Assembly: GCA_964016885.1 (NCBI GenBank) | Contig: OZ024742.1 | Location: forward strand, 275,528,001 to 275,592,000 | Origin: Eledone cirrhosa | Lineage: Eukaryota | Reading direction: 5' to 3' | Length of the DNA stretch: 64,000 bases | In this document: positions 25,810-59,893 of the stretch, piece by piece | How positions within the stretch are numbered: the first letter of the stretch is position 1 | How the letters are laid out: every line of letters begins with the position of its first letter | Made by a program: the position numbers and the translations under genes | Notes under the pieces: model-generated | The model's input: only the letters and a program-made list of their open reading frames with translations | Databases searched by the model: none | What the model was told of the DNA's origin: nothing

Positions 25810-26098
25810 GAATGTATATATAGTGTATTTTGCAATACACTGTATGCTTAATTGAAAGCATTTCGAAGACCTTATGTTATTGTTTTAGAGTAGTGACAGA
25901 CTCGCTTACTTTAATTTCAGCAACAGTTAGCTTTATCTCCCCCTGTTTGCTGAAATTAAAGTAAGTGAGTCTGTCACTACTCTAAAACAATAGCATAAGG
26001 TCTTCGAAATGCTTTTAATTAAGCATACAGTGTATTGCAAAATACACTATATATACATTCATATATATATAGCTATTTCAGAGCACCAATTCTAATTT
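25810..26098 (+). mobile_element. Foldback mini-element A (~117-bp arms, ~16-nt loop, ~27-nt 3' tail) in (TA)n
   Basis: 25810-25926 is the near-perfect reverse complement of 25943-26060. Confidence 0.85.
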
Positions 26099-26132
26099 AT
26101 ATATATATATATATATATATATATATTCTATT

Positions 26133-27283
26133 CTAAGGCGGGTAAATTTCGCGAGATCCATGGACGAGTTCTCTCCAGCGGTCTCTGTCCCTCATTATCA
26201 CTGCCATGTCCTGCGTCTCCAACAGACCAGTGTCTGTCCTTAGGGCATCAACATACGTTAACCTTGGTCTTCCTCTTCTAGTGTGTCCATATAGGGGCTC
26301 CCAAAGGAGCACTGAGTGCAATGTCAACTCTGGATGTCGGTGAGCATGTCCAGCTAACCTCAGTCTCCTCTGTGTCACTTTTGAGCTGACTTTTGGGATG
26401 CTCTGAGTTTTTCACCCTCAGTGTATACTGATTAATGTTCAGAGCCATCCTCAGCATTCTCGTGTAGCACCCAGCCACCATCTGAGTGAGTTTCTTGGTC
26501 AGTGTCCAAGTCTCAGACCCATACATAAGCACAGACTCCACTACAGCAATGAAGAGGCGGATTTTCAGGTCTCTACGAAGGTCCGACTTCCACACCGATC
26601 TCAAGCTGTGGCACGCCGCCCAGGCCTTGCTCTTCCTCTCAACCACATCATCTTCCGTATTCCCTATCTTTGCTCCTAATACAGGAAGCCCTCAACCAAT
26701 TCTAGCGGCTTCCCGCCTACATTAGTGATCCCCTCTGGCTTCTCAACATTCTCTACCAGATATTTTGTTTTAGTCTCATTCATTCTCAGCCCCACACTCA
26801 TCGACACAGCCTCAACCTCCCGCATCAAATCCTCTGCCTCCTTCACTGTATTTGTCACCAAAACTATGTCGTCGGCAAATTCAGCATCCAATACCTTTTT
26901 CGCCCTAACTCTCCTGCTCTGACCCGGTGCTACAGTAAAGCCAGAGTCCTGGTGTTTCTCCAGTGCAAGGCGCATACAATAGTCCACTACGATGATAAAA
27001 AGGTAGGGAGCCAATGTATCTCCCTGGAGCACTCCAGCCAGTATCTCAAAGAACTCTGTCATCCCATCAGGTGTAATGACTTGGGCTTTGGTGTTGGTGT
27101 AGAGCAGTGATATCAGGTCCACTATCTTCTTGGGGATTCCATAAGCCTGTAAGATCTTCATCAGGCAGTAACGGTCCACAGAATCAAAAGCCTTCCTAAA
27201 GTCAATGAAAACCATGACCGCAGGAAGGCACTTTGCTCTAGCTCCCTCTAATATCCTCCTCAGCATCAGGATGTGACTGGTGG
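26133..27283 (-). mobile_element. RTE-clade LINE RT fragment, frameshifted
   Basis: FIDFRKAFDSV, GVLQGDTLAPYLF, EFADDIVL, LMYGSETW, RRLRLAGH, RRGRPRLTY. Confidence 0.9.
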
Positions 27284-27439
27284 TTGATCTACCTACATAC
27301 ATTGATCTACATACATCTATGTATGTATATGTATGTATGTGTATGTATATATATATATATATATATATATATATATATATATTTTTTTTTAAATATATAT
27401 ATATACATACACATACACACATACATACATACATACATA

Positions 27440-28033
27440 CATGGTGGCTGCCAACTCGTTTTCGAGTACGGCCACTACTTCATATCCATGTAGGAGAACC
27501 CCTACCGATGCGCTGAACAAGTGTGACTTTTTAGTCCAGCCAGCGACTTGAAAACTCTGGTACAAACACTACACCTGTAACAATTATTGACACATAGTGC
27601 TGGGCACATGGTACCATATGATGTCAAGTGCAGAGAGATCTCCAGATATAAAGCAATGCCTGTGCCGTGAAGCTTTTATAGTGAGCAAAGGCACTGCACA
27701 AAGCCAGTCCTACTCTCTTAACCAAGATGATATTTACCAAAAAGAAGAACAAGTCAACATCATTGGATACCATCAGGGTTGCAGGTGTTATATCAGAGTT
27801 TTCCTTCTCCTAGAATTCTGCCTTGACAAAGGCTAAGGGGTCATCTCTCCCGGTGATTTTGGATGGCCATTGACTCTTAAGAGCTCCTTTGCCCTTTGAC
27901 AGGTTTTGTTTTTAGTCCTGCAAGATGTCCAAAGTCACCCTCCTCACCAAGAAACCTTGGTGGGGTTGCCAGTTTAGTCGCCAACGACCCGACCATTGGA
28001 CAGGTTGTACTGGGATACATGTTACCAGTACAT
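27440..28033 (-). mobile_element. Probable 5' UTR/start of an RTE-like LINE; partial second copy at 28155-28290
   Basis: Same strand as and upstream of the RTE fragment; 27870-27990 is similar to 28168-28290; C2H2-like remnant VCTRVFKSLAGLKSH near 27510-27575. Confidence 0.5.
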
Positions 28034-57325: not shown

Positions 57326-57389
57326 CTGGTTCCTTACCACATTTCCTTCGTTATATATATATATATATATATATATCATATATATAATT

Positions 57390-58440
57390 AAATGATATTA
57401 AATAAATGGAAACTATATTTATAAAACCATATTTATTCTATTATATATATGTCAAGGGTACCAAAAACTTTGGTACGCTTTCATCAGATAAAATACAAAG
57501 TGTGTTTTATAAATTTTGACATAGCCAAGGAACATACCTTATCGGTTGAAGTTTTCCTTGGAAAGTGGACTTAGAGACAGATTTTTCAAAATTGTTAAGA
57601 TGTGTATGCAAATGAATATGAATATGTAAATAAGATTGAGGTATATGTTTTAAAAAAGGTTATTTTAGACGCTATGGAGAATTTAGATATGTGTTTGTAT
57701 TAGTAGGAAAGAAAGAAAAGGAAGAAAAGAAAAAAGAGAAAAAGGAAAAAAGAAAAGAAGACCTTAAAAATTACGTTAATTTGGAGGAAAGAAATTTGAA
57801 TATTTACCTATATTATGTATATACTTATATGGAGAATTTCGTTTGTAAGTATTTATCTTATTACAATTTTGTAGTAGGTTATATGTATAAATATCTGCAT
57901 ATATTAATAATTGCATATGTATTAGTACTAAAGAGATATAGAAAATTTACAATTATTAGTTGTTTATAATATGAGTTACGAGGGAAGTTGATTTTGTGTT
58001 TTATGTAAATAAATAGGTATTTCAAGTTATGAGATGAGAACAATATAGATTTGAATATTTTGTTCAGCATTGAAAATGTTTTTATAATATTAATTTAGTG
58101 AGGTTACATATATAGTAAATTTACACGATTGAGAAAGGAAAGATAACTTCAATTTCGTTTGTTCATCGATAAATTTGAAGAGTGATTTAGGAAATTAAAT
58201 ATTATTTAGTGTGAGATTAATTATTTTAATCGAAAGATGTGTGAATGTTTGAAAATCAAAAGATGACATGCTTATCTAAGAAACTATCGTGTAGAGGATA
58301 ACATTTTCTAGTGTCAGTTAATTTTTCTAGTGTCAAACTACATCTAAAAAATATTATCTTTAGAGGGTGTCATTAGAAAAATAATAATGTAAGAATTAAA
58401 AAATTAAAAATTAAAAATTAAAATTATATACATAAACATA
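57390..58440 (-). repeat. PLE-type terminal segment; left arm of a ~1-kb inverted repeat with 62680-63681
   Basis: Colinear reverse complement including the hammerhead (GAAA mutated to GACA here). Confidence 0.9.
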
Positions 58441-58499
58441 TATATATATATATATATATATATATATATATATATATATATATATATATATATATTTTT

Positions 58500-59457
58500 T
58501 TTTTTTTTTTCCTGAAAGGTAAAGGTATTACAAATATTAGTGATATTCACATTTAGAAATATTAAAATATTAACAGTATTAATAATTTTAAATTGTTATA
58601 GAGGATAAGATCATTTTGAAGGATTATAGGAATATTATAAATTAAACATAGTTTTGAACGTTGAATTTTGGCGATGTCTACAAGGAAAAAATAACTCTGT
58701 CCTGAGATTAATAGAGTTTTGACAGTTAATTATATAGAAAAATTTCTTCGATACATAATTTACAGAATCTTGATAAAGCCATATTTCGGTACGCAGGTGC
58801 TTTTAAAATCGTTTTCCAAGATATTCAATAGTCTATATTCTTGCATTTTAAGTTCCATATAAGATGTGAAAGTGAAGTAGAAGATTTTTTATCAGATCTT
58901 TTAAAAGAATGATTATGGTTATTCCAGCGTTCTTTAAATTTTGTAGAAGTGGCTCTAACATAGTTAAATATTTTATCTCTAGTTTTAACTGTGCATTTAT
59001 AAACTACGTTTTTATCTAAACAATTATTTTGTAAAGGGCAGTTTGATTTGATTCTACAGTTCCATTTTATGGAGTTGTTGTTGCTCGGAACGGTACTATT
59101 ATACTGGATATTGCTAGAAATATTATTATTGCTATTTTGGTTATTTTGGTTAGGGTTTAAATTTAAGTTTCTATTATTAATTCTATGTTCATAGTAGTAG
59201 AGTAGGATAGTTTTATAGTATGCCTGTTAAAAATAGAGTGGTATCTGTGAGCTTTAGGAAAACATTTATCTAGTGCTTTAAAGAATAGCTTTGCTAAACA
59301 TGTTTTAACGCTTAATGAAAATGGGGATGAGTACCAAATAATATTTCTACTTCTAGTTCTTTTGATTGTTTTAGAGTTTAGGTTAAATTGTTTATTATTA
59401 TTATAATTAATACTAGGATGATTTGCCATGTTATTGTTATCAATGTATTTAATTTTA
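58500..59457 (-). mobile_element. Penelope-like element fragment (WYSSPFS, linker, GIY-YIG)
   Basis: RSRNIIWYSSPFS..HRYHSIFNRHTIKLSYST, NC..CPLQNNC, NVVYKCTV, FCKLCIEE. Confidence 0.82.
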
Positions 59458-59893
59458 TTCCGGTTGGTTGGTTGGTTCCACAACCAGATGATTGTTTATA
59501 TATTGACAAAGTTCTTTCGTCACACCCTCTGTGACCTCTTCAATGACTGGGGATTCTTTTCTTTGTTTTTGTGCCTCTCCTTTGTTCTGTCCTACGCCAT
59601 CTTGTTTTTGTGTGTGTTGTGGGCACACAACACACACAAAAACAAGATGGCGTAGGACAGAACAAAGGAGAGGCACAAAAACAAAGAAAAGAATCCCCAG
59701 TCACTGAAGAGGTCACAGAATGTGTGACGAAAGAACTTTGACAATATATAAACAATCATCTGGTTGTGGAACCAACCAACCAACCGGAAATTTATAAATT
59801 CCTAAATTTATAAATTTATTATAATAAATTGAAGTGAAAGCAACTGGTGCGTGTGTTTCTTATTGGCAACATGACCCTCCCAAAGTATAACAA
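59458..59893 (+). mobile_element. Foldback mini-element E (~164-bp arms, 4-nt loop, ~100-nt tail, then (TA)n)
   Basis: 59458-59621 is the reverse complement of 59626-59789. Confidence 0.92.
59700..59742 (+). ncRNA. Minimal type I hammerhead
   Basis: GTCA-CTGAAGA-gGTCACA gaatg TGTGAC-GAAA-GAAC-TT-TGAC. Confidence 0.78.

Follow-up and report, generated by a model that had tools for sequence, protein, structure and literature searches.

In this study, five short inverted repeats (units A to E) were investigated in a 64,000-nt stretch of contig OZ024742.1 from the 2,996-Mb Eledone cirrhosa assembly; this stretch is called the window, and all positions refer to it. A preceding sequence-only reading had taken the units for unrelated fold-back mini-elements without open reading frames (ORFs), and had proposed either truncated products of several families of Penelope-like elements (PLEs) or a self-propagating class of ribozyme-bearing hairpins. 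Here, units C, D and E are linked to three PLE families and units A and B to retrozyme-like tandem monomers, and the arms and joints of the units point to formation anew at the insertion sites. Hairpins within the window were located by an inverted-repeat scan and self-BLAST, and hammerheads by descriptor match and direct reading. Exact motifs of 22-31 nt taken from the arms were counted genome-wide with reversed motifs as controls, and 30 loci per family were taken from the matches listed in each genome motif search. Short hairpins were counted by gap patterns, and their totals are lower bounds.

Layout of the five units and their families

All five inverted repeats were recovered by the scan, by self-BLAST and by alignment of the arms, which are 125-195 bp long and 95-98% matched (local alignments of 128 columns with 3 mismatches in A, 169 with 5 in B, 125 with 6 in C, 195 with 7 in D and 175 with 4 in E). 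The right arm of every unit runs into unpaired sequence and then into (TA)n, and the window outside the units is full of retroelement debris.

Unit D consists of an inverted tail-less arm on the minus strand (49183-49377) and a sense arm on the plus strand (49393-49601), the latter being the 3' pseudo-long terminal repeat (pseudo-LTR) of a 4.2-kb family with reverse transcriptase (RT) and GIY-YIG endonuclease. This sense arm starts at the 5' wall of the family, the base on which its longer arms recurrently halt, and a one-sided tail (49602-49633, plus strand) precedes (TA)n at 49634-49816. Unit C has an inverted arm (48152-48270, minus strand) that adjoins an (AG)n tract, a sense arm (48268-48411, plus strand) that is the 3' pseudo-LTR of a GIY-YIG Penelope-like family and starts 3-4 nt inside the family 5' wall, and a one-sided tail (48412-48476, plus strand) followed by (TA)n. 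In unit E, the inverted arm (59458-59621, minus strand) has lost its outer, left part, and the sense arm (59626-59893, plus strand), again the 3' pseudo-LTR of a GIY-YIG Penelope-like family, contains the ATG of the family ORF at 59871 (plus strand) with its first codons and ends at the tail-less end of the family before (AT)n. The unique 3' tail followed by (TA)n that had been claimed for all units stands for A to D, but the 100 nt so described in E are not the family tail; the unit stops at the shorter family end, and the true 60-nt tail is absent.

Unit A is made of an inverted tail-less arm (25799-25923, minus strand) from a family of ~320-nt tandem monomers, a sense arm (25929-26071, plus strand) that begins no more than 3 nt from the predicted hammerhead cut site and lacks the ribozyme core, and a one-sided tail (26072-26097, plus strand) reaching the second family 3' end, with (TA)n at 26098-26126. 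The inverted tail-less arm of unit B (32895-33338, minus strand) covers 443 nt of a ~540-nt monomer and takes in the 278 nt previously regarded as a loop, which are really a continuation of the arm. Its sense arm (33342-33510, plus strand) starts ~6 nt 3' of the predicted cut site, and an 85-nt one-sided tail (33511-33595, plus strand) leads into (AT)n.

Family-versus-family BLAST gave a single 15-nt match, between C and D (E=0.002), in agreement with the earlier statement that the units have no obvious sequence in common; yet a short promoter motif preceding the TATA box is common to C and D (read by eye), and their GIY-YIG domains are 47-48% identical. The term ORF-less is likewise apt for the units themselves, but the elements of which C, D and E form the ends do bear ORFs, and the opening codons of the E family ORF fall within unit E.

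Exact-motif counts in the genome were 12,884 for C, 1,675 for D, 5,442 for E, 952 for A and 661 for B, and 0 for the reversed controls. A GIY-YIG ORF lies upstream in sense at 14 of the 30 E loci and an ORF at 6 of the 30 D loci, and C gave one real case in 30 loci plus locus L217; contiguity of C with an upstream GIY-YIG domain was found in two independent loci, in which the RT core was not recovered. The full D unit measures 4.2 kb and holds two frames, one of 476 aa and one of 775 aa that encodes RT/GIY-YIG, and the D ORF at locus L248 scored 27.6 bits for RVT_1 (below the 29.6 cut-off) and above the cut-off for GIY-YIG. For E, the GIY-YIG match (E=0.00066) was below the cut-off and RT motifs were read by eye. 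Pseudo-LTR tandems were recognised in D, in which the motif recurs at 4,184-4,208 nt, and in E, in which it recurs at ~4.07 kb in locus L041, a near-complete tandem unit with an ORF that starts inside the repeat, at the codon matching window position 59871. The tandem spacings obtained for C represent microsatellite noise.

A CX4CX2C linker precedes the endonuclease in all three families (CNDNRCGTC in D, CGRSNCGTC in C and CIDKKCIIC in E). The CX2-5CxxC motif between RT and endonuclease is a mark of the Neptune and Nematis clades (PMC8557442; statements on published elements here and below refer to the accessible portions of the cited papers), and by itself this motif suggests that C, D and E are of the Neptune/Nematis type. 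As in endonuclease-positive (EN+) PLEs, an inverted 5'-truncated neighbour copy and a one-sided tail are found in C, D and E. On these sequence features, the three are the 3' ends (pseudo-LTRs) of three RT/GIY-YIG Penelope-like families, and the earlier proposal of truncated inverted PLE products of several families is supported for them. Target-site duplications are unreadable in microsatellite targets; the microsatellite lies on both sides in 38 of 48 D hairpins. Many near-identical D tandem copies occur among the matches listed, and a young-looking 4.2-kb D unit whose two long open frames (476 and 775 aa) overlap lies at L248:982-4643.

In families A and B, tandem spacings were 301-324 nt (22 of 23) and 516-542 nt (6 of 7), respectively, and two or more copies per locus were found at 17/30 and 7/30 loci (partly overlapping). 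A PLE ORF was found upstream at 1 of 30 loci in each family, where it is distant and belongs to another family. The head-to-tail monomers of ~320 and ~540 nt have no ORF and each carry a type I hammerhead, as retrozymes do, and A and B are likely non-LTR retrozymes. Judged by sequence, their window units are truncated inverted insertions of these ORF-less tandem monomers; the earlier hint at retrozymes thus fits the tandem hammerhead monomers, but not a hairpin element.

Minimal type I hammerheads matching the descriptor are present in the pseudo-LTRs of C, D and E, and the readable sense-arm copies noted previously were located at 48303-48340 (C, plus strand; U3-A8 core variant, palindromic CCGG stem III), 49433-49469 (D, plus strand; one stem II substitution) and 59700-59742 (E, plus strand). 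A further family-type hammerhead lies in the inverted arm of D (49304-49340, minus strand). The U3-A8 variant has been described in PLE hammerheads (PMC4209133). In B, the supposed decayed sense-arm hammerhead is instead a motif with a complete type I core on the minus strand (33063-33144; CUGACGA...GAAA, 6-bp stem III, GUA triplet, 7-bp stem I), and the family has CUGAUGA in 18 of 20 motifs and GUA in 20 of 20, with the same stem III and stem I lengths. The GAAA-stem III-UA half noted in A is not the family ribozyme; the true one lies upstream in the monomer, and the sense arm begins at or beside its cut site at 25929. Among 40 A motifs (16 of 60 overlapping handles excluded), 38 have the hammerhead core and 38 have GUC, and compensatory changes occur in stem II (GCAT/ATGC, GTAC/GTAC, GCAC/GTGC) and stem III (CAAGG/CCTTG, CAGAG/CTCTG, CAGGG/CCCTG).

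The A hammerhead folded with z=-5.5 in one copy, and isolated hammerhead folds of C, D, E and B gave no significant z-scores. Rfam returned no hammerhead at the gathering score, nor among 96 matches up to E=5 in 24000-64000. When whole units were folded, 38/38 motif nucleotides of C, 36/37 of D and 39/43 of E were paired into the hairpin; the suggestion that each hairpin would mask its own ribozyme agrees with the predicted folds of C, D and E, and in B the hammerhead is only partly paired (34/82 nt). The arm starts of A lie within -1 to +5 nt of the cut site in 8 of 28 loci and at 13-76 nt in the other 20, and microhomology accounts for several near-cut starts; cleavage of A in vivo is at most hinted by this suggestive pattern. 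Arm starts at the ribozyme cut were not supported for B, with 10 of 31 within 12 nt, none on the cut and four running through it. A clean minimal hammerhead of a further family outside the five (CUGACGA, palindromic CUAG stem III) lies at 14937-14976, between direct repeats at 14738-14816 and 15173-15251 and beside a GIY-YIG-like fragment.

Tails, fold-back points and the 5' wall

Each family has two fixed 3' ends, one with and one without the tail, and all of them merge with TA repeats. Among 54 D hairpins, 47 carry one tail, 7 none and 0 two. The two ends of E are 60 nt apart; measured from the anchor, they fall at 261 and 321 nt in most of the 41 loci. Two RT start sites flank the tail of an Anolis PLE in vitro (PMC11167929), and the two fixed ends per family match this arrangement.

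Short hairpins number at least 853 in D, at least 1,697 in C and at least 604 in E. The joints between the arms were compared in 48 D loci (two segmental duplicates dropped), 22 C loci among the matches listed and the 41 E loci (the window unit and 40 out of 50 listed loci). The E joints are diverse (38 distinct in 41 loci), and E inverted pairs among the matches listed are spaced at 130, 222, 538, 1119, 1332, 2860, 3509, 3780 and 4195 nt, a range of 130-4,195 nt that makes the hairpins the short end of a continuum. The longer arm halts on one base in 37 of the 48 D loci, with none beyond although the pattern permitted it, and in 11 of the 22 C loci, again with none beyond. The fold point, whose uniqueness at every locus the sequence-only reading had regarded as decisive against a self-propagating class, thus nearly always differs between loci in E, but recurs in D and C.

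The wall base follows the first T of a TATA box by 31 nt in D and 29 nt in C, and CCAAT boxes were read from the sequence further upstream of TATA in both families. Non-inverted D copies start at the wall directly after (TA)n (224 reverse-strand matches), some of which may be 5' ends of long copies. We infer that the wall of C and D would correspond to the transcription start, i.e. a fixed 5' end of the RNA, which would account for the recurrent fold point better than inheritance. In rotifer PLEs, a TATA/initiator (Inr)-like promoter lies in the pseudo-LTR (PMC3846280).

Overlaps of 1-2 nt were found at 27 of 48 D joints and 15 of 22 C joints, and the commonest D joint type (55-nt) recurs in 19 of 48 loci. 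In all 14 zero-overlap joints of E, one arm starts with A and the other with C, an arrangement obtained in 35% of simulated blunt joins (p about 5e-7, post hoc). The E fold-backs cluster in the 25 nt before the word AAGATGGCG (window 59646-59654), which presumably resembles a YY1 site.

Formation of the hairpins

We put at about 0.8 the probability that the units are head-to-head joined ends of the C, D and E PLEs and of the A and B monomers, made anew through two-strand primed reverse transcription at (TA)n on RNA from one source. The two arms of a locus are closer to each other than to arms of other loci, with mean differences of 4.4 within and 8.8 between loci in D (38 loci with two full arms, out of 54; 0/2000 permutations), 5.6 and 14.2 in E (22/40 loci; 0/1000) and 4.6 and 7.8 in C (20/22 loci; 0/1000). 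Private variants common to both arms numbered 15 in 11 of the 38 D loci, with 92 in a single arm, and 14 in 9 of the 22 E loci. An origin of the two arms from unrelated RNAs was rejected, as D subfamily columns were discordant in 1-4 of 38 loci versus 9.5-19 expected. Discordance reached 11/38 in D columns 17-20, which lie inside a mini-palindrome and likely mark a local mutation hot spot. At ~20 nt inside the 5' wall of D (window 49424-49432) there is a multi-allelic site, at which the two arms of a locus are often distinguished by 2-3 linked changes that make the mini-palindrome; it has the look of a hot spot for template-switch mutations.

Greater length is not confined to one side. Among 42 one-tailed D loci, the tail-less arm exceeds the tail arm in 19 and falls short of it in 20, with corresponding values of 6 and 9 of 19 in C, and the tail-less arm of window unit B (443 nt versus 169+85) extends ~270 nt further 5'. 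A copy of the first complementary DNA (cDNA) cannot hold sequence that this cDNA lacks, and a longer tail-less arm opposite a tailed one therefore indicates that both arms were likely RNA-templated. These loci also bear on a DNA snap-back, in which the hairpin would equally be made anew but the cDNA would fold on its own 3' end (or RT would switch to the new cDNA) and be copied back as the second arm. Snap-back fits the subfamily alleles and private variants that same-locus arms have in common, the 1-2 nt overlaps and the short re-copied pieces in some joints, including that of window D. From a single cDNA it cannot yield one arm with a tail and another with additional 5' sequence, and the most frequent joints of C and D are palindromic around a 1-nt centre; we regard this route as unlikely.

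Under two-strand priming, an RT/GIY-YIG protein would nick both strands of the microsatellite. Priming would take place from one nick at the end of the tail and from the other 26-85 nt further upstream, the sites being AU-rich and merging with (TA)n. Each cDNA would extend until drop-off or until the capped 5' end of the RNA, and the two cDNA ends would be joined via 1-2 nt of pairing, in E often with an untemplated C, probably copied from the cap, that pairs with a G of the partner. The short template may be a transcript from the 3' pseudo-LTR promoter or the first 200 nt of the full-length mRNA, copied from cap-proximal start sites, and A and B were likely inserted in trans by a Penelope-type protein. 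An Anolis PLE cleaves and extends both target strands in vitro, with which twin priming from two nicks is consistent (PMC11167929), and the cap-derived G of full-length L1 insertions (PMC11702581) is a parallel for the untemplated C of E. We advance more tentatively, and at somewhat less than even odds, that the joints record a specific Penelope step, in which a dimeric enzyme primes two RNA-templated cDNAs that run to the cap and are paired through the cap-copied C, that retrozymes A and B follow the same route, sometimes from ribozyme-cut templates, and that the by-product is more than 3,000 near-perfect hairpins, a possible source of small-RNA silencing.

Propagation of the short hairpins from master hairpins, as a non-autonomous class resembling miniature inverted-repeat transposable elements (MITEs) or hairpin retrozymes, is very improbable and largely refuted for D and E. 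The recurrent joints, above all the 55-nt D type, and the hairpin numbers given above would suit such a class, and copies bounded by the start site might be transcribed, given the internal promoter of Drosophila Penelope (PMC2377424). Against it, the most frequent D joint is found in either orientation with respect to the tail (9 versus 7) and in both subfamilies (4+5 versus 4+3, p=1), arms group by locus and not by side, and tailed and tail-less arms are not told apart by any D column (best Fisher p 0.054). The fixed inherited joint, side-specific sequence and equal terminal inverted ends by which MITE or foldback elements are recognised are absent. A hairpin-specific D lineage was rejected because the hairpin alleles near the D joint all occur in promoter-bearing arms (1,389 matches, among the matches listed). 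The diversity of E joints speaks the same way, and the C and D hairpins do not include the TATA and CCAAT boxes and are likely dead on arrival. Penelope tandem and inverted structures are known to trouble assemblies (PMC8557442), but arms that differ by 3-7 substitutions and indels and end at two distinct fixed family ends, with thousands of loci obeying identical rules, leave a negligible chance that the palindromes arose artificially, as fold-back chimeras of the assembly or the library. A comparison of unit E with four sequencing runs gave short contigs, none of which crosses the whole unit; one run, which may be the source sample, contained many differing E fold-back joints. For the D pseudo-LTR, the sequencing runs listed as containing it included no RNA run.

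Several observations weigh against two-strand priming up to a capped RNA end, or against its parts. The start site, cap and cleavage are all deduced from DNA. One of the 22 C loci scored for two tails, and the C wall falls on a C-A step that is not assignable to one base; RNA polymerase II starts at C are unusual. The A/C rule of E was spotted by eye and then tested on identical loci, with uniform cut points as the null, and terminal transferase activity could add an untemplated C even where no cap is involved. In D, joints with an extra G or C are rare (~3 of 48). Private variants in both arms may instead reflect gene conversion after insertion, and in C the common minor alleles were in both arms in 43 cases and in one arm in 62, a count that probably includes alignment noise in T/A runs. 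For A and B, no autonomous partner was found.

Relation to known elements and neighbouring features

The architecture of PLE insertion units is in print (PMC8557442; PMC3846280; PMC2377424), and the layout, the one-sided tail and the opposite-strand hammerhead pairs are already published, so that the units are a known kind of insertion scar. Neptune/Nematis-type EN+ units (PMC8557442, PMC3846280) resemble C, D and E in RT with a C-terminal GIY-YIG domain and CX4CX2C linker, in partial tandems, an adjacent inverted 5'-truncated copy, a one-sided tail and (TA)n targets, and in the hammerhead, the TATA/Inr-like promoter and the ORF start inside the pseudo-LTR. They differ in that the tails here are 26-85 nt, compared with 30-40 nt there, and that thousands of copies here are a folded piece from start site to tail; the accessible text on those units mentions neither the sharp 5' wall nor the A/C joint rule. 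Metazoan PLE hammerheads of the minimal type I (PMC4209133) share with C, D and E the short stem I, the additional base ahead of stem II, a stem III that is palindromic or of 1-2 bp, and the U3-A8 variant, and occur as opposite-strand pairs 100-700 bp apart that were ascribed to truncated elements; the non-palindromic stem III of E is unlike them, and otherwise nothing essential separates C, D and E from that description as far as it is accessible.

Non-LTR retrozymes (PMC7229834; bioRxiv 10.64898/2026.07.22.740005) are likewise ORF-less head-to-tail monomers with a type I hammerhead. In contrast, the B monomer is 540 nt long compared with 220-400 nt, stem III is stable in A and B (5-6 bp), and both families have inverted arms of the Penelope type, a tail on one side and (TA)n targets; PMC7229834 does not contain the word 'inverted'. 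Anolis Poseidon PAc in vitro (PMC11167929) is alike in two-strand cleavage and extension, an AT-rich target, two internal RT starts that define the tail and a predicted dimer. In L1 twin priming (PMC11702581), the second target strand also primes on the RNA, cDNA ends are linked by end-joining and an extra G occurs at full-length 5' junctions, but the L1 segments are adjacent parts of the RNA, whereas here both arms copy one segment and yield a palindrome.

The start-site wall, the cap-like joint signature and the Penelope-style retrozyme insertion were not found in the literature covered, to which supplements, Repbase/Dfam and most subscription papers did not belong. The origin of PLE tandem and inverted structures and of the tail has been called undefined (PMC8557442), and retrozyme mobilisation is described as still to be characterised (bioRxiv 10.64898/2026.07.22.740005). 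The value of the units lies in the mechanistic record that they offer, comprising the longer arm on either side, the stop at a predicted start, the cap-like base of E and retrozymes with a PLE insertion signature. These joint features lead to specific predictions for an existing in vitro system (PMC11167929), and the young-looking 4.2-kb D units with long frames provide a Neptune-type element for in vitro assays. If the more tentative proposal is true, A and B would be direct sequence evidence for Penelope proteins moving retrozymes, and the hairpins could feed small-RNA silencing of their parent families.

Other PLE remains occur around the units. A long version of the hairpin layout lies at 38230-43059, where 427-nt inverted arms (88%) surround a decayed minus-strand PLE RT/GIY-YIG ORF that is ~41% identical to the D protein. 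Inverted arms of 1.1 kb (86%) at 57381-63691 enclose unit E and a LINE fragment, together with a PLE-like endonuclease fragment at 58825-59226. A sixth piece, from family D (53342-53461; inverted, with the tail-less end and without hammerhead), immediately precedes the decayed PLE of a different family at 53482-54849. A further repeat end that is associated with TA and very common is present at 55710-55849 and 44365-44420; two window copies face each other across (TA)n, and fold-backs of it occur in loci L156 and L158. A 63-bp minisatellite of 14.8 copies (98% matched) lies directly behind a PLE fragment at 24106-25035.

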